From NCBI GenBank assembly GCA_014729725.1, contig WJJL01000045.1, positions 1-56,555 on the forward strand: 56,555 nucleotides of DNA. The letters are read 5' to 3'. The notes under the pieces are model-generated. The model was not told the origin of the DNA, made no database searches, and worked only from the letters and a program-made list of their open reading frames with translations. Source of the DNA: Candidatus Moraniibacteriota bacterium (GTDB lineage: Bacteria; Patescibacteriota; Minisyncoccia; CAIUEV01; JAHKAQ01). A program made the translations under genes and the position numbers. Each line of letters opens with the position of its first letter. The stretch's first letter is position 1. Shown here piece after piece: positions 1 to 17,561 of this stretch.

Positions 1-54
1 GCCGATGATCCGCAAGTTTTAGAATTAAAATTTTGGATATCGGCTGTTAAGTAA
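1..54 (+). CDS. 3' end of an unidentified gene (partial, enters from the left edge)
   Basis: Frame 1 is open from base 1 to TAA at 52-54 (...ADDPQVLELKFWISAVK*). Too short to name. Confidence 0.2.
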   Translation, partial: ADDPQVLELKFWISAVK

Positions 55-68
55 AGTATTTTTAAAAA

Positions 69-425
69 TCAACCTTTTATTTGATAAAATTCTATAACGT
101 TTCCTTCTGGATCTTCTGCCTGAAAAATTAAATAATTTTCAACTTTCTCTAAAGGCATGATAATTTTAGAATTTTTTTCTTTGATAATTTCAAGCATTCT
201 ATTGATATCTTCTACTTCAATGTTTGGGACTACATTATTTCCAATGGTTGTTTTTTCGTTATCAGCTGATGGATCAAATAACAGAAGTGAAATGTAATCA
301 AAGTCAAAAGAACTCATCCTTTTATCAAATGATGAAACCGGTGTGTCAAAAATATCTTCATAAAATTTTACTGCTCGCTTCATGTTTTTCACTGAAAGAT
401 AAATTGCTTTGATTTGAGGTTTCAT
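69..425 (-). CDS. VOC / glyoxalase-bleomycin resistance family protein
   Basis: 118 aa. N-terminus MKPQIKAIYLSVKNMKRAVKFYEDIF and C-terminal EDPEGNVIEF are typical of the glyoxalase/VOC fold. Confidence 0.7.
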   Translation of the reverse strand: MKPQIKAIYLSVKNMKRAVKFYEDIFDTPVSSFDKRMSSFDFDYISLLLFDPSADNEKTTIGNNVVPNIEVEDINRMLEIIKEKNSKIIMPLEKVENYLIFQAEDPEGNVIEFYQIKG

Positions 426-453
426 ATTATTAGATGATTTTTAAAAATATTTT

Positions 454-533
454 ATTTAACGTTTCTGTGTATCTGAAGTTTTTGTCTTTCTTCCTTATTG
501 TAATATAAAAGAAAGGAAAGGCAAAAATTTGGG
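454..533 (+). repeat. 5' half of structured palindromic unit 1: ATTTAAC-N14-GAAGTT-imperfect hairpin-AATTTGGG
   Basis: ATTTAAC at 454-460. CTGTGTATCTG at 465-475 is complementary to 1237-1247. GAAGTT at 475-480. Hairpin arms at about 479-496 and 508-527. AATTTGGG at 526-533. Unit 2 (1352-1519) has the same layout and the same 14-nt spacing. Confidence 0.7.
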
Positions 534-537
534 TGGA

Positions 538-594
538 GTAAAAGAGAAAATTTGAATATTTTTCCTTAATTTAAGCCCTTTTTCAATTTTAAAA
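538..594. repeat. Left arm of inverted repeat IR-a enclosing cassette 1
   Basis: GTAAAAGAGAAAATTTGAATATTT (538-561) is the perfect reverse complement of 1208-1231. GCCCTTTTTCAATTTT (575-590) is the perfect reverse complement of 1177-1192. The 13-15 nt between the two blocks has diverged. Confidence 0.85.
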
Positions 595-606
595 TTTGTT
601 TGTCGC

Positions 607-635
607 TTGACATATAGTAAGTTTTCTGCTATACT
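607..635 (+). promoter_or_regulatory. Consensus sigma70-type promoter of cassette 1 (TTGACA-17 nt-TATACT)
   Basis: TTGACA at 607-612, 17-nt spacer, TATACT at 630-635. The block TCTGCTATACTA is shared with the cassette 2 promoter. Confidence 0.6.
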
Positions 636-699
636 AATACGATACTAAGATAGTGTCAAAAGTATAGTACATTCACTTCAAAAATAGGAGGAAAACGAA

Positions 700-1119
700 A
701 TGGGAAAAGAGTATAACCTTCACTGGTACGGAGTGCTCACCATCGAAAACCTGCAACAAGTCGCAGACCTGCTCCTTCAGCTTCTTGACGGAAAACGCTA
801 CACTTTTGTGGCGGCAAACGAATTTTTTCGCTTCAAGCCAGAGGTCAGGACGGGTCAAACCCTCAGCCACAAGGGAGCCACGACGGGCAAGGCGATCAAC
901 GTCTATTATGATGAGAAAGAAAATCCGCCCAAGCACGCAGGTTTCAATGTTGGTGACACTTACGGAGTTTGGGGTTGCTCGACTAATCTGGCAACGGATG
1001 AATACGACAACGAATTTAACAACCCATACTTCGTTTTTGAGTACAACAAGGTTACGATCACTCACCGCGCGCCCGCTGGGCACTTGTTGTACTGGGTTGT
1101 TGCGATCGAACAAGATTAG
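700..1119 (+). CDS. Orphan 139-aa protein, no family recognised; roughly 50% G+C
   Basis: ATG is preceded by AGGAGG (686-691) at 8-nt spacing and followed by an intrinsic terminator. Composition is unlike every other gene in the window. I recognise no motif. Confidence 0.6.
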   Translation: MGKEYNLHWYGVLTIENLQQVADLLLQLLDGKRYTFVAANEFFRFKPEVRTGQTLSHKGATTGKAINVYYDEKENPPKHAGFNVGDTYGVWGCSTNLATDEYDNEFNNPYFVFEYNKVTITHRAPAGHLLYWVVAIEQD

Positions 1120-1134
1120 AGCAACCCCAAAGCT

Positions 1135-1176
1135 ACACCACCGTCATGTCTTCGGACCTCTGGCGGTGTTTTTTTA
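1135..1176 (+). terminator. Intrinsic terminator of cassette 1
   Basis: ACACCACCG...CGGCGGTGT stem with an inner GTC-TTCG-GAC hairpin, followed by a run of 7 T. Confidence 0.6.
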
Positions 1177-1231
1177 AAAATTGAAAAAGGGCTTATTAAA
1201 AATAAAGAAATATTCAAATTTTCTCTTTTAC
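1177..1231. repeat. Right arm of inverted repeat IR-a
   Basis: Reverse complement of 538-594 (16-nt and 24-nt perfect blocks). Confidence 0.85.
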
Positions 1232-1236
1232 GGAAC

Positions 1237-1254
1237 CAGATACACAGTGTTAAG
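1237..1254 (+). repeat. 3' closing arm of palindromic unit 1 (CAGATACACAG-T-GTTAAGT)
   Basis: CAGATACACAG (1237-1247) is complementary to 465-475. GTTAAGT fits GTTRRRY and opposes ATTTAAC (RYYYAAC) at 454-460. Confidence 0.65.
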
Positions 1255-1272
1255 TGAAGTTTTGCCGATTCA

Positions 1273-1301
1273 TAAAATTTACTTTTGAAATTACGAATCA
1301 A
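1273..1301 (-). promoter_or_regulatory. Weak relic of the host promoter-like element, pointing toward the VOC gene
   Basis: Minus strand reads TTGATT-cgtaatttcaaaagtaa-ATTTTA. It carries the AATTACGAA motif found in other host promoter elements. The -10 is poor. Confidence 0.25.
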
Positions 1302-1351
1302 CTTTTTTAATTGCACAAATATTTTCTTTTCTCGTTACAAGGCAAAATTTC

Positions 1352-1519
1352 ATTTAACGTATCCGAGTATGCGAAGTTCGCTTTTCGGATTTATCGATTA
1401 TTATTTGAATTATCTCATTACTATTTTAGCTGGTTTTTGCTTAAATTACCACTAAACAGAGAAAAGCGAATTTGGGAAAAAGGCGAGCCGAGCCTTTTTC
1501 CGCATACTCGGTGTTAGGC
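1352..1519 (+). repeat. Structured palindromic unit 2 (cargo-less copy), attC-like long imperfect hairpin
   Basis: Order of parts: ATTTAAC (1352-1358), N14 containing CCGAGTATGCG (1363-1373), GAAGTT (1373-1378), CGCTTTTC (1379-1386), long loop, GAAAAGCG (1461-1468), AATTTGGG (1469-1476), short hairpin AAAAAGGC-gagccga-GCCTTTTT (1477-1499), CGCATACTCGG (1501-1511), GTTAGGC (1513-1519). Confidence 0.75.
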
Positions 1520-1590
1520 GAGGGTGAGCGGAACGGAGTGGAGCGAAAGCGCAGCGCCCCCGTAGCGTTTTCTTTCAAATTATTTTTTGC
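1513..1590. repeat. Left arm of inverted repeat IR-b enclosing cassette 2, split by a 46-nt GC-rich insert
   Basis: GTTAGGCGA (1513-1521) and TTTTCTTTCAAATTATTTTTTGC (1568-1590) are perfect reverse complements of 2068-2076 and 2043-2065. In the right arm the two blocks are 2 nt apart. In the left arm they are separated by GGGTGAGCGGAACGGAGTGGAGCGAAAGCGCAGCGCCCCCGTAGCG. Confidence 0.85.
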
Positions 1591-1600
1591 GGTCGTGGGC

Positions 1601-1629
1601 TTGACAGATTAGCTGTTATCTGCTATACT
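1601..1629 (+). promoter_or_regulatory. Consensus sigma70-type promoter of cassette 2 (TTGACA-17 nt-TATACT)
   Basis: TTGACA at 1601-1606, 17-nt spacer, TATACT at 1624-1629. Confidence 0.6.
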
Positions 1630-1725
1630 AAACGTCAATAGTGAGAAATCTTTATTTAACCCAAAAAGGGTGGTTTCTCGCTATCGCGAGGATCTGCTCT
1701 TTACTAAACTCAAAGGAGGTAAAAA

Positions 1726-1971
1726 ATGGCACACAAAGAGTTGAAAGGTGATCGTTGTCCAAAGTGTAATGGCAGTGGAAGCGTGATTGCTGATGTTGGC
1801 GGATTTCATGCCGAAGTGGATTGCCCCGATTGTGCAGGTACCGGACTGGTAAACAGCCCAAACGCTTGCAAAAAGTGCAAAGGGTCTGGTAGCGTCATCG
1901 TTGATGCTGGTGGATTCAATGTCGAGGCAACCTGCGAACATTGCAATGGCTCCGGCTTGGAACCGCTTTAA
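1726..1971 (+). CDS. Stand-alone DnaJ-type cysteine-rich zinc-finger mini-protein (4 x CxxCxGxG), 81 aa
   Basis: Motifs CPKCNGSG, CPDCAGTG, CKKCKGSG, CEHCNGSG. Internal duplication of about 37 aa. GGAGG lies 6 nt before the ATG. A terminator follows. Roughly 50% G+C. Confidence 0.7.
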   Translation: MAHKELKGDRCPKCNGSGSVIADVGGFHAEVDCPDCAGTGLVNSPNACKKCKGSGSVIVDAGGFNVEATCEHCNGSGLEPL

Positions 1972-2001
1972 ACACCGCAAAAGCAGATCCGGTTCAATCG
2001 C

Positions 2002-2034
2002 AAGGCGTTGGCTTATATAGCTGACGCCTTTTTC
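2002..2034 (+). terminator. Intrinsic terminator of cassette 2
   Basis: AAGGCGTTGGC...GCTGACGCCTT stem followed by TTTTTC. Confidence 0.6.
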
Positions 2035-2042
2035 TTATATGA

Positions 2043-2076
2043 GCAAAAAATAATTTGAAAGAAAATGTCGCCTAAC
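2043..2076. repeat. Right arm of inverted repeat IR-b
   Basis: GCAAAAAATAATTTGAAAGAAAA-TG-TCGCCTAAC, reverse complement of the two blocks at 1568-1590 and 1513-1521. Confidence 0.85.
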
Positions 2077-2110
2077 TCCCTATATCCGAACCTCCAAATT
2101 TTTTATTATA

Positions 2111-2152
2111 ATTTAACAAAAAATTTAGAAGTTTTTTATACCCATAAGTATA
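2111..2152 (+). repeat. Degenerate or truncated third copy of the unit 5' half (ATTTAAC-N10-GAAGTT-hairpin)
   Basis: ATTTAAC at 2111-2117, GAAGTT at 2128-2133, small hairpin TATAC-ccataa-GTATA at 2137-2152. No closing arm is seen before the aspS stop. Confidence 0.4.
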
Positions 2153-2226
2153 GTATGTAGATAATTGTTTAGTCAATTAATTAGCCCTGGTTGTTTTTTA
2201 AAAAACAAACTTTTTTCAAACATCCG

Positions 2227-4101
2227 CTAAATTTCATCTTTCTTAACTTCTATCCTCAACTCATCCAAGACCTCTTTACTCACCTTTCTGGGAGCGCCTA
2301 ACATCAAATCCTGTCCTATGGCGGTTTTGGGGAAAGCCGTCATTTCGCGTACATTAGGTTCATCCCTAAGCAACATAAGCAACCTGTCTATTCCTTGACC
2401 TAAGCCGGCATGCGGAGGTGGACCGAATTTAAAAGCCTTCATTATGGGGCCAAAGTTTTTGTCAATTACTTTTTTGCTATAACCCACCGCTTCAAAAGAC
2501 TCGCTTAACATTTGTCCATCAGTACAACGCTCCCCTCCGGAAAACATCTCATAACCGTTGCAGGCAAGATCAAACTGTCTAGCCTTAATTTTTAAAAGCT
2601 CTTCAACTCCCTTTTTGCGAGCTTCTTTCAGCTGTTTTAAAGTACAGTCCGGGTTCGTAAAAGGATTATGACCGAACTGAACTCCGCTGCCTTTTTCCGA
2701 CATTCCATGAGCCCCCTCTTCCACTGGTTCAAAAAGAGGAAAATCATTAATCCAGCAAAAAGCCAAAATGTCAGGATCTCCCAATTTAAAACGCTCTTGA
2801 ATGTTTCTTCTGATAATATCCAAAATTTTAGCTGTTTCCGAGGGGTTGTCGGCGGCAAAAAAAATCGTGTCAAAAGGCTCCGGTTTTAAAGATCTTATAA
2901 ATGATAGATTCAAAAATTTGGCGATAGCTCCGCTAGCCTGACCTTTTTGATCGATTTTAATCCAGGCCAAACCAGGGGCGCCGGCGCCTTTAGCGATCTC
3001 GGTTAATTCATCGATATCTTTTCTCGAAAACTCCAAATCCCCTTTTCCGTAAACTTTTAAATTTAAATCTTTTGATTCAAAAGCTTTTTGTCTGGCTTTT
3101 GGAACTTTAAGCGCTCGAACATTTTGAGCTTGCTTGAAAATCTTAAAATCAGTTTTTTGAGCCTCCTTGGTAACATCCATTAATTCTAAAGCAAATCTCA
3201 AGTCCGGTTTTTCCGTGCCAAATCTTTCAATAGCTTCATTATAGGAAAATCTGGGCAACGGTTTTTGAAGTAATTTTTTACCTTCACCAAATTTGGTCAA
3301 AAATTGAGATAAAAAATCTTCGTACATTTGCCAAACATCCTCCTGTTTAACAAAAGCCATCTCTAAATCCAACTGATAATGCACATCTACATGACGATCA
3401 GCTCTGGAATCTTCGTCGCGAAAAGCCGGCGCAATCTGAAAATACTTATCCACACAGCTATACATTAAAAATTGCTTGAAAATCTGCGGTGATTGCGGTA
3501 AGGCGAAAAATTTCCCCGGCTCCCTCCTGGCCGGAACCAAGAAATCTCTAGCCCCCTCTGGAGCGGGCGCTGACAAAAGTGGGGTTTCTACTTCCAAAAA
3601 ATCTCTTTCACTGAACCAATTGCGAATAAACAAATTAACCGCTGCTCTAAATTTTAAATTTTCTTTCATCCTGTTTCTTCTAAGATCCAAATATCTATAT
3701 TCCAGCCTTAGCTCTTCGTTAACTGAAATCTTATCTTTGATTTCAAAAGGCGGCGTTTGAGACTTGCTCAAGATTACTAATTCATGCACCTCAATCTCGA
3801 TTTGACCGGTTTTAAGTTTAAGATTTTCCATTCCTTTTATCCTTTTTCTAACTAAACCTTTCACCTTTAAACACCACTCGGATCTAACTTGTTCTGCCTT
3901 TTGATGGGCCTGTTTATTAATTTTGGGATCAAACACAATTTGGGTAATTCCGTAAAAATCGCGTAAATCCACAAAAATCAAACCCCCATGGTCTCTTCTG
4001 GATTTCACCCAACCGGATAAAATTACCTCCTGACCGGTTTGATTTTCTTTTAATTCCCCACAAGAATTCGTTCTAAATTCATTTTTTGTTATTTTTGACA
4101 T
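2227..4101 (-). CDS. aspS: Aspartyl-tRNA synthetase (bacterial type with insertion domain)
   Basis: 624 aa. FFALPQSPQIFKQFLM and class II motif 3 GPPPHAGLGQGIDRLLMLL. Preceded by a T-box leader. Confidence 0.95.
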   Translation of the reverse strand: MSKITKNEFRTNSCGELKENQTGQEVILSGWVKSRRDHGGLIFVDLRDFYGITQIVFDPKINKQAHQKAEQVRSEWCLKVKGLVRKRIKGMENLKLKTGQIEIEVHELVILSKSQTPPFEIKDKISVNEELRLEYRYLDLRRNRMKENLKFRAAVNLFIRNWFSERDFLEVETPLLSAPAPEGARDFLVPARREPGKFFALPQSPQIFKQFLMYSCVDKYFQIAPAFRDEDSRADRHVDVHYQLDLEMAFVKQEDVWQMYEDFLSQFLTKFGEGKKLLQKPLPRFSYNEAIERFGTEKPDLRFALELMDVTKEAQKTDFKIFKQAQNVRALKVPKARQKAFESKDLNLKVYGKGDLEFSRKDIDELTEIAKGAGAPGLAWIKIDQKGQASGAIAKFLNLSFIRSLKPEPFDTIFFAADNPSETAKILDIIRRNIQERFKLGDPDILAFCWINDFPLFEPVEEGAHGMSEKGSGVQFGHNPFTNPDCTLKQLKEARKKGVEELLKIKARQFDLACNGYEMFSGGERCTDGQMLSESFEAVGYSKKVIDKNFGPIMKAFKFGPPPHAGLGQGIDRLLMLLRDEPNVREMTAFPKTAIGQDLMLGAPRKVSKEVLDELRIEVKKDEI

Positions 4102-4225: not shown

Positions 4226-4548
4226 TTAAAAAGCCGTCCTTACAAATCCAATACTACAATAAACAAGCTTCTTTGGATTTACAAGGACGGCTTTATTAAC
4301 CGCGGTGCCACCTTTTTTTATTTAGCCGTTGCCGGCCAAACCTCGATAACCTTTGAAAAATTTCAAAAAAATTATCAATTACGCATCTGAGGAATTTTGT
4401 AAACCGAAATCTTAAAGCTAAAAACCAAACAAAAGCGTAACAAAAATATTTTTCCAAGGTTGATTAGCTGTAACGGGCTAACCCGGAAAGTTCTACTTGT
4501 CCTAAAAGGACTTTCTTCTTTCAGCTAAGCGGTGTTGGCCGCCTCAAA
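4226..4548 (-). promoter_or_regulatory. T-box riboswitch leader controlling aspS
   Basis: Minus strand carries the T-box sequence AAAAAAGGTGGCACCGCGG (4301-4312 is GGTGGCACCGCG). It is followed immediately by a long terminator hairpin AAAGCCGTCCTTGTAAATCC...GGATTTGTAAGGACGGCTTTTT (4226-4294). A Stem I-like region lies upstream (GCTGAAAGAAGAAAGTCC...AGTAGAAC...CAGC). Confidence 0.8.
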
Positions 4549-14822: not shown

Positions 14823-17561
14823 ATGAATGTAAATGACAAAAAAAACTCAGAACTGATTAGCTGTCAGACCTGCCAAGGAGCAGGCTGGATTAATTCTGTT
14901 GGAAATCCCTGCCCTGACTGTAAAGGTAAAGGTTATTTTGAAACAGTTAGAGGAGTTAAGCTATATTGGGGTAAAGAAATCAGAGGAATTCCCCCGCTTC
15001 TTAGAAAATCGGTAAAAAAAACCAAATCGCTTTTTGAAATTTTAACCTGGGGAATAGGAATTTTATTTTTTACAATTGGAGGAATAAATCTTTTTGACAG
15101 TTTAAGAGCCCACAGTAAGCTAAAGCTGGATTTAAATTTATTTTTCGATGTGTTTTTTGCCGGTTTTTCCACTTCAATTTTTTGGCTGGCAATAACTATC
15201 TTTGGAATTCTCTATTTTTCCAAAAAAATTTTTAAAAAACCAAAACCCATCGATTTAAAAGATCCCAAATATAATTTCATTTTGTCAAAAGATTTCAGTA
15301 AAGAAAAAAAACCCTCTGAAATTGACATTTCCCAATCAGCGGATCGCCGATTAATAATAATCTTACAGGACGCTTTGGATTTGGCTTTTCAAAACAAACA
15401 ACAACCTAATCTTGTTCACCTGGTTTTTGCTTTATTGAAATCGCCTTCGGTTTATGAAATATTTAAAAAACTGGAAATTCCGATAAAAGAATTTATCCAG
15501 GATCTTGCCGGCCGGATGGAAAGCATTAATTTAAAAAAAGGCGAAGCGATTTTAAATCAAAATTATAAAATCTATTTACTATCTGCTTTCTGGCACACGG
15601 CAAAAGTTCAGGGAAGAACCATTAAACCGCAAAATCTTTTATTTGCAGCGATTTCAGACCCAAGGTTAAAGCCGGTTTTAAATAAATACTCTCTTCAAAA
15701 AGAAGATTTTGAAAATATCGCTCTTTGGAACAAATATAAAAATATCAAAGCTAAAAATTTTCTTAGCAAGAGCTCCTTTGACAAACCGCCCCATCTAATT
15801 ATGAACAAAAGCTGGAGTGCTATTCAAACCAAAACTTTGGACAGATTCAGTACAGATATCACTGATTACGCCAGAGTGGGAAGACTGTTACCTTTGGTAA
15901 ACAGAGAAGACGAAATGCGACTGTTGATTAGAATTTTACAGCGAAGCTCGAAAAATAATGTTCTTTTAATCGGAGAAGAAGGTAGCGGCCGCGATTCCAT
16001 GGTAAGGGGATTGGCCACCAGAATCGTTAAAAACAAAGTTCCTTCAATGCTTTTTGACAAAAGAGTCGTTAAGCTAAATCTGGGCAAGCTGGGAAGCGGA
16101 GACGGTAACGCTTTAAAAGCCAGGATTGAAGAAATTATGATAGAAGTGGTCAGAACCCAAAATGTCATAATTTATATCCCTAACATTCACGAACTGGCTA
16201 AAGTGCAAAGTTTCACTAATATGGATATTTTAAGCTTTTTAACCCCGCTTTTTTCCAAAAATGTAATTCAGGTGATCGGCGCTACGGAACCGAAAAACTA
16301 TCATAAACATATCGAGCCCAGAGGAGACTTTGCTCAAACTTTTGACAATATCAAAATAGAAGAATTATCCAAGGAAAAATCCCTCCAAGTTCTTTCCATT
16401 CAAATTCCTTTACTGGAAAAAAGCCACAATGTAAAAATTTCTTATAACGCAGCCGAGGAAGCTATTGATAATTCCAAACAGTTTATTCCTGACCGGCTTT
16501 TACCTCAAAAAGCTATTGATATAATTTCAGAAGCTATTGTCAGAGCCAAAAATGTTAAGGGATCCGATTTGGTTACCAAACAAGAAGTTTTGGAAGTGTT
16601 TTCCGAAAAAACCGGAATTCCGGTTACTAAAATCAATCGCAATGAAGCTGAAGAGCTGCTGCATTTAGAGGAAAAAATTTCCAAGAAAGTTGTGGGCCAG
16701 CCTCGAGCGGTCAAAAATACCGCTTCAGCAATTAGAAGAATGAGAGTAAGAATTGGGGAACAGGAAAGGCCAATTGCGGTTTTTATGTTTTTGGGCCCCA
16801 CTGGGGTGGGCAAAACGGAGCTTTCTAAAACTCTTGCGGAAATTTATTTCGGGGCCCGGGATAAAATGATTAGAATCGATATGAGCGAATTCGCCACTCC
16901 CTACGACCTGGAAAGGCTAATTGGAGACAGCTCCGGAAATCTTAACGGACTTTTGACCGAAAAAGTCAGAAAAAATCCTTTTTCCCTGGTTCTTTTGGAC
17001 GAGTTTGAAAAAGCTCATTCCACTGTTTGGGATTTGTTTTTACAAATTTTTGACGACGGTAGAATAACCGACGGCAAAGGAAGAGTTATTAATTTTACCA
17101 ATACAATAATTATCGCCACCTCCAATGTAGGGGCTAAAATGATTATCTCAACCTTAAACAAAGGAGGAGGCGTGGATGAAATTAAGCCTTACTTAAAAAA
17201 CGAGTTGCTTAAAATATTCAGACCCGAATTTTTAAATAGATTCGATGATATAATAATTTTCAATGCCTTGACTCTGGAAAACATCAAGGAAATCGCCAGA
17301 ATCGAAATCAATAAATTGAACAAAAGACTGGAGGAAGAACAAGGAATTACAGTTAAATTAACGGATCCGGCATTGAAGTATCTTGCCAAAATCGGCCACA
17401 GCCCTGAATTTGGAGCTAGATTTCTTAAAAGAACCATTAGGGAAAAAATCGAAGATGCTTTAGTGGTCGGAATTTTAAAAAAGCAATATCAAAGAGGAAG
17501 TCAAGTTATAATAGACAAAGCCCAGCTGGCTAAAAAAGAAAATGAATCGATTAATCAATAA
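14823..17561 (+). CDS. Clp/Hsp100-family AAA+ protein with N-terminal CxxCxGxG zinc finger, two TM helices and a degenerate first ATPase module
   Basis: N-terminus CQTCQGAG...CPDCKGKG. Two hydrophobic helices follow, then a Clp_N-like repeat. NBD1 reads GEEGSGRDS (no Walker A Lys-Thr) and IIYIPNIHEL (no Walker B DE). NBD2 is intact: GPTGVGKTE, LVLLDEFEKAH. Confidence 0.8.
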   Translation: MNVNDKKNSELISCQTCQGAGWINSVGNPCPDCKGKGYFETVRGVKLYWGKEIRGIPPLLRKSVKKTKSLFEILTWGIGILFFTIGGINLFDSLRAHSKLKLDLNLFFDVFFAGFSTSIFWLAITIFGILYFSKKIFKKPKPIDLKDPKYNFILSKDFSKEKKPSEIDISQSADRRLIIILQDALDLAFQNKQQPNLVHLVFALLKSPSVYEIFKKLEIPIKEFIQDLAGRMESINLKKGEAILNQNYKIYLLSAFWHTAKVQGRTIKPQNLLFAAISDPRLKPVLNKYSLQKEDFENIALWNKYKNIKAKNFLSKSSFDKPPHLIMNKSWSAIQTKTLDRFSTDITDYARVGRLLPLVNREDEMRLLIRILQRSSKNNVLLIGEEGSGRDSMVRGLATRIVKNKVPSMLFDKRVVKLNLGKLGSGDGNALKARIEEIMIEVVRTQNVIIYIPNIHELAKVQSFTNMDILSFLTPLFSKNVIQVIGATEPKNYHKHIEPRGDFAQTFDNIKIEELSKEKSLQVLSIQIPLLEKSHNVKISYNAAEEAIDNSKQFIPDRLLPQKAIDIISEAIVRAKNVKGSDLVTKQEVLEVFSEKTGIPVTKINRNEAEELLHLEEKISKKVVGQPRAVKNTASAIRRMRVRIGEQERPIAVFMFLGPTGVGKTELSKTLAEIYFGARDKMIRIDMSEFATPYDLERLIGDSSGNLNGLLTEKVRKNPFSLVLLDEFEKAHSTVWDLFLQIFDDGRITDGKGRVINFTNTIIIATSNVGAKMIISTLNKGGGVDEIKPYLKNELLKIFRPEFLNRFDDIIIFNALTLENIKEIARIEINKLNKRLEEEQGITVKLTDPALKYLAKIGHSPEFGARFLKRTIREKIEDALVVGILKKQYQRGSQVIIDKAQLAKKENESINQ

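Follow-up and report, generated by a model that had tools for sequence, protein, structure and literature searches.

Here we show that the short segment at positions 1359-2076 of 56,555 nucleotides of DNA from a Candidatus Moraniibacteriota bacterium (contig WJJL01000045.1, positions 1-56,555, assembly GCA_014729725.1; these 56,555 nucleotides are hereafter called the window) has the organization of one gene cassette of an integron-like array, carrying a real and conserved gene for a small, free-standing DnaJ-type zinc-finger protein. The inverted repeats that border the gene include the split cores of attC-like recombination sites, of which we found about 130 homologues in 78 metagenome loci, in many Patescibacteria (ultra-small bacteria). 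Twelve of these loci encode a ~270-aa tyrosine recombinase in one fixed layout, whose closest solved relative is VchIntIA, but which lacks the domain thought to define integron integrases. No integrase gene is present in the window itself.

All the features described in the sequence-only reading were found in the sequence where it had placed them. The ORF (1726-1971, plus strand, 81 aa) contains four CxxCxGxG motifs, and its two halves align over 31 residues with about 58% identity. The 23-nt repeat 1568-1590/2043-2065 is 100% complementary, as are the outer 9-mers GTTAGGCGA (1513-1521) and TCGCCTAAC (2068-2076). In the whole window, only two perfect inverted repeats of at least 20 nt lie within 2.5 kb of each other, and they flank this gene and the neighboring gene at 700-1119. 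GGATCTGCT in the leader (1690-1698) and AGCAGATCC in the trailer (1982-1990) are also exact complements; this match is weak on its own, since we estimate that about 0.02 such 9-mers are expected between a 90-nt leader and a 70-nt trailer, but it recurs in related sequences (see below).

The interpretation given in that reading is only partly supported. Its proposals that the gene encodes a free-standing, translated mini-protein rather than a pseudogene, that it is mobile cargo and that the UTR complementarity is a conserved feature agree with our data. However, its "32-nt split inverted repeat" is not a pair of transposon ends, the mobile unit is 1359-2076 and not 1513-2076, since it includes the attC-like hairpin (1352-1521) lying upstream, and the promoter, leader, trailer, terminator and 23-nt repeat belong to a reusable frame and not to this gene.

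The protein matches Pfam DnaJ_CXXCXGXG (PF00684) with an E-value of 4.3e-15 and 56 bits against a cut-off of 32.7. That its cysteine pattern might not be conserved, or that its homologues might be plain dnaJ fragments, had been set beforehand as grounds for rejection. We find instead 30 homologues of 77-102 aa in which all eight Cys are invariant and the termini and linker are conserved, about 20 stand-alone representative clusters, and purifying selection (dN 0.13-0.35 with synonymous sites saturated, dN/dS about 0.1). Together with its own Shine-Dalgarno, promoter and terminator and a motif spacing (22-15-22) that differs from that of DnaJ, these data refute a decayed dnaJ fragment, even though the DnaJ central domain is its only family match. 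It is not a DnaJ chaperone either: there is no J domain, G/F region or C-terminal client-binding domain, and NCBIfam DnaJ models score 18-45 bits against cut-offs of 338-556. An AlphaFold2 model (pLDDT 84) predicts two beta-hairpins, and the top structural matches are the DnaJ cysteine-rich domain (structures 1exk, 2ctt; the first Foldseek match), the UvrA zinc finger and BSD2. In a profile alignment, three consecutive motifs plus the beta-hairpin match E. coli DnaJ, but the spacing indicates two tandem copies of the hairpin-containing zinc unit rather than the interleaved zinc centers of DnaJ. The protein also resembles Anti-TRAP (RtpA, 3lcz) and plant BSD2, tiny zinc proteins built only from CxxCxGxG motifs that act by binding another protein. 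Pfam Anti-TRAP scores 35 bits (cut-off 32) in two stretches, whereas NCBIfam RtpA scores 41 bits, below its cut-off of 65. Anti-TRAP is a ~53-aa single-zinc protein under T-box control that binds TRAP; here there are two predicted zinc units, no trp context and no T-box or other Rfam element in the leader. An exact-protein look-up returned nothing, PADLOC gave no hit to a defense-system model for the protein of this cassette or of its neighbor, PHROGs gave only motif-level hits to Q-like antiterminator zinc fingers, and viral contigs held only distant relatives (33-43% identical), so this is not a phage-specific gene.

The recombination site of the DnaJ-finger cassette spans 1352-1521. It begins with R'' ATTTAAC (1352-1358), which belongs to the previous cassette, followed by the inferred crossover after 1358, a GTAT spacer, L'' CCGAGTATGCG (1363-1373), two internal hairpins, L' CGCATACTCGG (1501-1511), a T, and R' GTTAGGCGA (1513-1521; core GTTAGGC). 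Its single-stranded DNA fold has a z-score of -4.5, and it is matched at 83 bits (E 3e-18) by R1, our model of these sites, which finds 139 matches in 93 sources. Across 132 distinct units, the 11-bp L stem is 97% paired with double changes at 10 of 11 pairs, and AAC/GTT is essentially invariant, although the alignment used for these counts was fitted to the model. The imperfect palindrome with outer RYYYAAC and GTTRRRY cores, inner L boxes and a typical length of 104-121 nt corresponds to integron attC sites. In integron sites, extrahelical bases in the folded L box mark the recombined strand; here, no conserved extrahelical base is seen in the L stem, and asymmetry exists instead as a 3-4-nt bulge (GTTT versus T) separating the R and L stems. 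R' is followed by an accessory element, present at 1520-1567 as a short variant, of general form GA-NNN-(variable hairpin)-GAGAGTGCAACGT-nnn, in which NNN and nnn covary. Its strict core motif occurs in 50 of 119 units, and more carry variants by eye, so that roughly half of the units or more possess it. Rfam returned only two tRNAs in the window at the gathering threshold and nothing at E <= 1 for window 1-2300 or for positions 4300-11650 of L010, a metagenome locus with a homologous array; the leader, the attC-like site and the accessory element are therefore not known RNA families.

The boundaries of the cassette are supported by two further observations. First, R' is complementary to the R'' across the cargo (5.44 of 9 positions) but not, beyond the level of random pairs (3.77 of 9), to the R'' of its own hairpin (3.97 of 9), which is the signature of integron cassettes, in which R' is inherited with the downstream cargo. 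Second, homology between the window and L032, a metagenome locus that has the same frame at 84-90% identity around an unrelated 49-aa ORF, starts right after AAC at 1358 and stops right after AAC at 2076. This makes a transposon-like mobile insertion cassette or MITE very unlikely. Such an element, mobilized by a transposase encoded elsewhere, would explain perfect inverted repeats around a promoter-gene-terminator unit without a transposase, and other self-expressed modules in L010 also have flanking inverted repeats, of different sequences. However, no target-site duplication flanks the 9-nt or the 23-nt repeat, the 23-nt arm occurs only in this frame and in L032, the outer repeat is the GTTRRRY/RYYYAAC core, the frame is inherited together with its attC-like hairpin, and neither a transposase nor a related IS was seen.

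Window 1-2076 is the integrase-proximal end of the array. At 1-52 lies the 3' part of an attC-like site cut by the contig start (L'' GCCGATGATCC, with one extra G; L' GGATATCGGC; R' GTTAAGT at 46-52), and the array probably continues beyond the contig. Its box layout matches the units of R1, but there is no significant R1 match (best 46-85, 7.5 bits, E 0.53). The distal cassette (53-460) carries a promoterless glyoxalase-family gene (69-425, minus strand, which is the array orientation; Pfam Glyoxalase, 5.5e-9) and ends in R'' ATTTAAC (454-460), with an inverted repeat at 46-84/422-460. The next cassette (461-1358) is an attC-like hairpin (L'' 465-475, L' 1237-1247, R' 1249-1255) whose distal loop holds a promoter, a 139-aa ORF (700-1119) and a terminator between 24-nt and 23-nt inverted repeats; a 97-nt empty cargo loop follows, ending in R'' at 1352-1358. 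Positions 906-1715 of locus L047 are 93% identical to this cassette, and at least 25 other cargos sit in the same frame. The different sequence following R' in L047 initially suggested a second crossover point, but this was rejected, as the segment is a diverged homologue with compensatory R'/R'' changes. Similarly, taking the plus strand as the array orientation and 455-1255 as an abnormally long attC was ruled out by the position of the recombinase in related loci and the breakpoints with L032.

The DnaJ-finger cassette ends with R'' TCGCCTAAC (2068-2076), with the inferred crossover after AAC (2074-2076). The following junction, AAC|TCCCTATATCCGAAC, is attI-like and is followed by 150 nt (2077-2226) up to the end of aspS, with a promoter-like site on the minus strand (2176->2147) pointing into the array. 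A search of the window for a partner of TATATCCGAAC that would form a hairpin after 2076 found none, which led to the attI-like reading, and the junction AAC|T...TAT.CGAAC matches 11 recombinase-proximal junctions. As tblastn found no recombinase gene in the window, activity here would need an enzyme in trans, or the array is fossil. In related loci, the array lies directly upstream of a divergently transcribed recombinase, with an attI-like junction, in 12 of 12 recombinase-bearing loci, which were fetched by the site motif alone. Most loci were collected through this motif, which is an ascertainment bias. Among recombinase loci chosen only by the length of their contigs, 3 of 4 have units upstream. 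Of 72 cassettes, 59 have one ORF pointing away from the recombinase.

The recombinases of the related loci align with VchIntIA (2a3v) in two blocks, 7-178/7-181 and 194-272/240-318, so that about 43 residues are missing, and TIGR02249 scores 211-213 bits in two stretches, below its cut-off of 265. The missing segment corresponds to the IntI-specific additional domain (I2 alpha-helix) near patch III, named as defining in the published literature and regarded as necessary for attC recombination; its absence counts against the integron-like reading. An alternative, which we consider rather unlikely but not excluded, is that the arrays are not integrons in the strict sense but stacks of small elements exploiting the host's single Xer-type chromosome-dimer recombinase, as do IMEX elements such as CTX-phi, which integrates as a hairpin through XerCD. 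Each folded hairpin would then mimic a double-stranded dif-like site and the attI-like site beside the recombinase gene would be the chromosomal dif. In favor of this, the recombinase has no IntI domain and scores at the cut-off of the XerA model, its family is very large in Patescibacteria (more than 6,500 proteins at E <= 1e-40), as expected for a housekeeping enzyme, its flanks include housekeeping genes such as dnaG-rpoD and lepA, and the L stem is a perfect duplex mimic without conserved bulged bases. Tandem stacking at one chromosomal site is likewise shared with IMEX elements and the pdif modules of Acinetobacter plasmids. However, the units are 0.4-1.5-kb single-gene cassettes and not phage genomes, with promoterless genes of diverse metabolic functions co-oriented away from the recombinase, which is the integron pattern; the sites are 100-nt hairpins instead of 28-bp double-stranded dif sites; and the closest solved relative by sequence is an integron integrase.

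The expression module is bracketed by the 23-nt repeat, whose left arm is identical in L032. The sigma-70-type promoter TTGACA-17-TATACT (1601-1629, 11 of 12, TG-extended) and the intrinsic terminator (2002-2030; a 12-bp stem followed by a T run to 2036) are the best consensus matches in the region, and a pattern search for the promoter shared with the neighboring cassette found the two sites. The promoter reads toward the attI-like end, opposite to the array orientation; in integrons, a minority of cassettes also carry their own promoter in reverse orientation, as for toxin-antitoxin cassettes in Vibrio arrays. The leader (1637-1725) contains a hairpin (1638-1684), a terminator-like hairpin (1675-1692) followed by a T-rich run, GGATCTGCT, and CTCTTT (1697-1702), which can pair with the Shine-Dalgarno AAGGAGG at 1713-1719. 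Homologous leaders are found in L032 and L010. The leader/trailer pairing is present in all four homologous frames found, once through a compensatory GCT/AGC to GTT/AAC change, and is part of the minimum-energy fold of the predicted mRNA. It probably closes the mRNA ends and may also free the ribosome-binding site from the CUCUUU segment once the full transcript is made, but this is inferred. We regard as unlikely that this is an ordinary chromosomal gene whose repeats serve only RNA-level roles (insulation, stability, translation control). Most homologues of the mini-protein are indeed free-standing genes outside arrays, with their own promoters and terminators in varied contexts, and the pairing is predicted in the mRNA. 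However, the gene lies between recombination-type sites, an identical frame carries a different ORF in L032, a homologous gene lies in the L010 array, and the 23-nt arms lie outside the predicted transcript.

Based on the above data, we propose, with good though not full confidence, that 1359-2076 is the cassette nearest an attI-like site abutting aspS, composed of an attC-like hairpin, a short accessory element and a self-contained expression module in which the ORF can be replaced. The outer 9-nt repeat would be the cassette's own R'/R'' pair, split when a circular cassette was inserted by strand exchange at the conserved AAC/GTT triplet. In this view, the excised circle would carry the junction ...GTCGCCTAAC|GTATCCGAGTATGCG... 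(or ...TGTCGCCTAAC|GTATCCGAGTATGCG...) and the empty site would read ...TTTCATTTAAC|TCCCTATATCCGAAC.... What the analysis itself establishes is the recurrence and covariation of the sites, the R'/R'' signature, the breakpoints at AAC, the fixed layout with the recombinase and the common ORF orientation in related loci, the match of the window junction, the purifying selection and predicted fold of the protein, and the sharing of the frame with its conserved pairing; we infer that the recombinase, or a copy elsewhere in this genome, moves the cassettes by recombining folded single-stranded hairpins, and excision and insertion, zinc binding and the role of the protein are likewise inferred.

Compared with integrons, these systems differ by the absence of the I2 helix from the recombinases of related loci, by the asymmetric bulge between the R and L stems where no conserved extrahelical base is seen, by the covarying accessory stem-loop that follows R' in roughly half of the sites or more, by the genes carried in some cassettes inside the distal loop of the attC-like hairpin, and by conserved promoter/leader/trailer frames with interchangeable ORFs. 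The last two features were not found described for integrons in the papers searched, and literature searches for integrons in Patescibacteria/CPR found no description, although the incomplete collection searched means that this is not proof of novelty. A bolder possibility, which we hold only tentatively, at somewhat less than even odds, is that many Patescibacteria carry a cassette-capture platform that works like an integron but is run by a compact Xer/IntI-like recombinase without I2, acting on about 105-nt hairpin sites that have a covarying accessory stem-loop. The platform would include a class of self-expressed cassettes built on conserved promoter-leader-trailer-terminator frames in which ORFs are exchanged, with the gene inside the loop of the recombination hairpin in one frame type, and the DnaJ-finger protein would be one such cargo. 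If this recombinase recombines folded single strands without I2, the accepted view that acquisition of I2 created integron-type recombination would need revision; alternatively, these systems would represent a pre-I2 or convergent stage. Cassette arrays with integron logic appear to be common in Patescibacteria, beside a recombinase that lacks the domain regarded as the key innovation of integron integrases, which makes the origin of single-strand attC recombination directly testable with natural proteins and sites, and standard integron finders, which require the IntI domain, would at best report them as orphan attC clusters.

For the gene, these results define a small, conserved family of free-standing DnaJ-finger proteins of Patescibacteria, predicted to hold two zincs, that is sometimes carried as mobile cargo and is a candidate chaperone adaptor or inhibitor. 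The sequence-only reading had proposed a holdase, a redox-active protein or a decoy for a chaperone or protease; on present evidence, the most likely role is a small zinc-dependent protein-binding module (holdase or adaptor), a step that is inference only and remains weak, as no conserved neighbor was found in seven genomic contexts and no partner protein or phenotype is known. The Clp-like ORF at 14823-17561 does begin with two CxxCxGxG motifs, as had been noted.

The sequence around the DnaJ-finger gene shows that the observation made in the sequence-only reading holds in full, as every element it listed is present. The ORF at 1726-1971 (+) encodes an 81-aa protein with four CxxCxGxG motifs, which matches Pfam DnaJ_CXXCXGXG at E 4.3e-15, above the curated cut-off, and more weakly other DnaJ-finger families. 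Its two halves align over 31 residues and are about 58% identical. The 23-nt inverted repeat 1568-1590 / 2043-2065 is perfect, and GTTAGGCGA (1513-1521) and TCGCCTAAC (2068-2076) are exact complements, as are GGATCTGCT (1690-1698) in the leader and AGCAGATCC (1982-1990) in the trailer. In the whole window, only two perfect inverted repeats of at least 20 nt lie within 2.5 kb of each other, and they flank this gene and the gene at 700-1119. Both genes have nearly the same strong promoter, TTGACA-N13-CTGCTATACTAA, which occurs nowhere else in the window, and a clean intrinsic terminator follows the DnaJ-finger ORF at 2002-2030.

The gene is real. A search of 5.8 billion proteins found 29 homologues besides the window protein itself, 77-102 aa long and 50-77% identical, which come from Patescibacteria where they are named. 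All eight Cys, the linker LVNSPNAC and the C-terminal GSGLEP are conserved. Against six homologues, the non-synonymous divergence is 0.13-0.35 while synonymous sites are saturated, and dN/dS is about 0.1 where it can be measured. The possibility that homologues would prove to be plain fragments of dnaJ, set beforehand as a ground for refutation, was examined by an exhaustive profile search of 1.84 billion representatives. This returned only 78 proteins at E <= 1e-10, about 20 of which are stand-alone proteins of 70-120 aa that cover the whole profile, the rest being longer multi-repeat proteins. The family is therefore small and distinct, and not a set of dnaJ fragments. AlphaFold2 applied to the alignment predicts, with a pLDDT of 84, two beta-hairpins at 19-32 and 56-69. 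The profile aligns three consecutive motifs and the hairpin to the E. coli DnaJ cysteine-rich domain, and the top Foldseek matches are DnaJ zinc-finger domains, the UvrA zinc finger and BSD2, all with weak E-values as expected for so small a fold. The motif spacing of 22-15-22 suggests two tandem hairpin-type zinc units.

The repeats surrounding the gene follow a regular grammar. GTTRRRY occurs at 46-52, 1249-1255 and 1513-1519, and RYYYAAC at 454-460, 1352-1358 and 2070-2076, while between an RYYYAAC and the next GTTRRRY lie perfect 11-bp inner boxes, CTGTGTATCTG / CAGATACACAG and CCGAGTATGCG / CGCATACTCGG. This is the layout of integron attC sites. The element at 1352-1521 is predicted to fold as a long hairpin on either strand (z about -4.5 to -4.8).

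The closest homologue of the mini-protein (77% identical) lies on a 17-kb contig, L010, in a run of nine such units, each about 105 nt long, which separate single genes lying mostly on the opposite strand. The run ends at the N-terminus of a tyrosine recombinase that is cut by the contig end. One L010 unit, at 4390-4529, is a hybrid whose L'' (CTGTATATGCG) and L' (CAGATATACAG) come from two different unit types and pair over only 8 bp, as would be expected after recombination between unlike sites. A metagenome scan with the 19-nt motif AACGTTTCTGTRTATCTGA returned 78 loci, and a covariance model (R1) built from nine units found 139 matches in the loci collected, often 3-7 per locus. On the 132 distinct units, the L stem is 97% paired with changes on both sides at 10 of 11 pairs, AAC/GTT is essentially invariant, and the outer R stem is only 77% paired, whereas controls with slid partners collapse to 20-47% pairing. 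The alignment is fitted to the model, which favors pairing, but the size of the contrast makes the hairpin convincing all the same. In roughly half of the units or more, R' is followed by a covarying accessory stem-loop (window 1520-1567; L010 6947-7010, 7812-7875 and others), a strict core motif of which matched 50 of 119 units. Its form is GA-NNN-(variable hairpin)-GAGAGTGCAACGT-nnn, with NNN/nnn switching between GGG/CCC, CCC/GGG, CCT/AGG and ATC/GAT, and it has no Rfam match.

In integrons, the R' that follows a site belongs to the next cassette and hence matches the R'' beyond that cargo. We measured this on 59 consecutive unit pairs: R' is complementary to the next R'' at 5.44 of 9 variable positions, to the R'' of its own hairpin at 3.97 of 9, and random pairs give 3.77 of 9. 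The outer repeat GTTAGGCGA/TCGCCTAAC, which the sequence-only reading had taken as part of a split inverted repeat bounding the cassette, is exactly such a pair.

The boundaries were obtained from the metagenome locus L032, which is nearly collinear with the window. Identity of 84-90% begins immediately after AAC (window 1356-1358), runs through the hairpin, the accessory element, the 23-nt arm, the promoter and the leader up to the ATG, is lost over the ORF, resumes at AGCAGATCC and ends immediately after AAC (2074-2076). The mobile unit is therefore inferred to be 1359-2076, rather than the 1513-2076 initially delimited, with strand exchange at AAC| on the window + strand. After 2076 the window reads TCCCTATATCCGAAC, for which a search of the window found no hairpin partner, but which matches the junctions found next to the recombinase genes, with AAC|T, TAT and CGAA at the same offsets. 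The true array orientation is thus the window minus strand. The DnaJ-finger cassette is the first after an attI-like site, and the promoterless glyoxalase gene (69-425, minus strand) follows the array orientation. A promoter-like site, TTGACT-18-TATACT, at 2147-2176 (minus strand) in the attI-like region points into the array; it is a candidate equivalent of the integron Pc promoter and would transcribe the DnaJ-finger gene in antisense. The contig starts inside another attC-like site (1-52), which fits an assembly break in a repeated or variable array, and the array probably extends further, its distal part being missing.

A tblastn search found recombinase genes in 12 of the loci fetched by the site motif. 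In every case the units lie upstream of the gene in the same relative orientation, and the gene is transcribed away from the array. Of 72 inter-unit segments, 59 have their longest ORF pointing away from the recombinase. To reduce the ascertainment bias, we fetched four recombinase loci chosen only for the length of their contigs, and three of them have units upstream in the expected orientation. The gene next to the array in locus L058 (8432-9242) appears frameshifted near its C-terminus, as the ORF ends after HSLRHSFATHLSGKWS and the last 40 residues continue in another frame. The proteins are about 270 aa long, and their best solved relative is the integron integrase VchIntIA. However, this alignment breaks into two parts and skips about 43 residues of VchIntIA at the place of the IntI-specific domain, which is described in the literature as defining and as the innovation that enabled single-strand recombination. 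The integron-integrase model TIGR02249 scores 211-213 bits, below its cut-off of 265, whereas the XerA model ('tyrosine recombinase/integron integrase') scores about at its cut-off. The family is very large in Patescibacteria. tblastn found no such gene in the window, where the end of aspS comes 150 nt after the attI-like junction.

Based on the above data, we propose that the system works like an integron. The architecture and covariation of the sites, the cassette boundaries, the layout of the related loci and the purifying selection on the gene are shown by the analysis, whereas movement of the cassettes by the recombinase, zinc binding by the mini-protein and its cellular role are inferred from sequence and predicted structure. 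The interpretation offered in the sequence-only reading, a free-standing DnaJ-type mini-protein carried as mobile cargo within an inverted repeat, is thus supported in part, the outer repeat being the core pair of an integron-like site. The site, boundary and layout criteria of integrons are satisfied, but the recombinases of related loci do not satisfy the integrase criterion and the window has no integrase at all. We therefore regard the array as integron-like, and not as a member of the integron family in the strict sense. A Xer-exploiting (IMEX-like) mechanism remains a serious alternative for the same anatomy. Searches of the available literature found no description of such arrays in Patescibacteria, although this is not proof of novelty.

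Four expression frames of the DnaJ-finger type were found, in the window, in L032 and twice in L010, and they hold three different ORFs: the mini-protein twice, a 100-aa protein and a 49-aa hydrophobic peptide. All four keep a leader segment complementary to the sequence at or just after the stop codon, over 9 nt in the window and 14 nt in L032, and one L010 frame has a compensatory change, GCT/AGC to GTT/AAC. In the predicted mRNA (1637-2038) this pairing is part of the minimum-energy fold (z -5.2), while in the leader alone CUCUUU is predicted to pair with the Shine-Dalgarno AAAGGAG. As single-stranded DNA, the + strand of the cassette is predicted to fold into two adjacent hairpins, one being the attC-like hairpin and the other a cargo hairpin closed by R'/R'', the 23-nt arms and the leader/trailer pair (z -6.6). 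The bracketing of self-expressed modules by inverted repeats recurs in L010 with unrelated arm sequences.

The neighboring unit at 461-1358 is a second frame type, in which the promoter-gene-terminator module lies inside the distal loop of the attC-like hairpin, between 24-nt and 23-nt inverted repeats. Its gene (700-1119) encodes a 139-aa protein with no family match. The metagenome locus L047 holds the same unit at 93% identity, and at least 25 different cargos of 58-269 aa occupy homologous frames in other metagenome loci. Most of these frames carry a TTGAC...TAnnnT promoter match, and in most the longest ORF reads toward the recombinase.

Only the window and the L010 group place the mini-protein gene in arrays, the other homologues being monocistronic genes in varied contexts without R1 units. 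No conserved neighbor was found, a search against defense-system models gave no hit, and hits to phage families are at motif level only. Anti-TRAP and BSD2 act by binding another protein, and by analogy with them and with the DnaJ cysteine-rich domain we tentatively propose a zinc-dependent protein-binding module (holdase or adaptor), a step in which our confidence is low. The ClpB/ClpC-like AAA+ protein (AAA_2, ClpB_D2-small) at 14823-17561 carries a related N-terminal finger, CQTCQGAG...CPDCKGKG, that matches the Anti-TRAP model. The sequence-only reading had correctly noted these two motifs, but a link between the two proteins is speculation. The contig L004 also encodes a 170-aa protein with about eight such motifs near its mini-protein gene. 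Lastly, the free-standing homologues in loci L001 and L005 share leader segments, about 120 nt upstream of the mini-protein genes, that are absent from the window leader (attgcggaaa, and gggyatgaa..ttcgtrcctgaarcg) and that may represent a conserved 5' UTR element.
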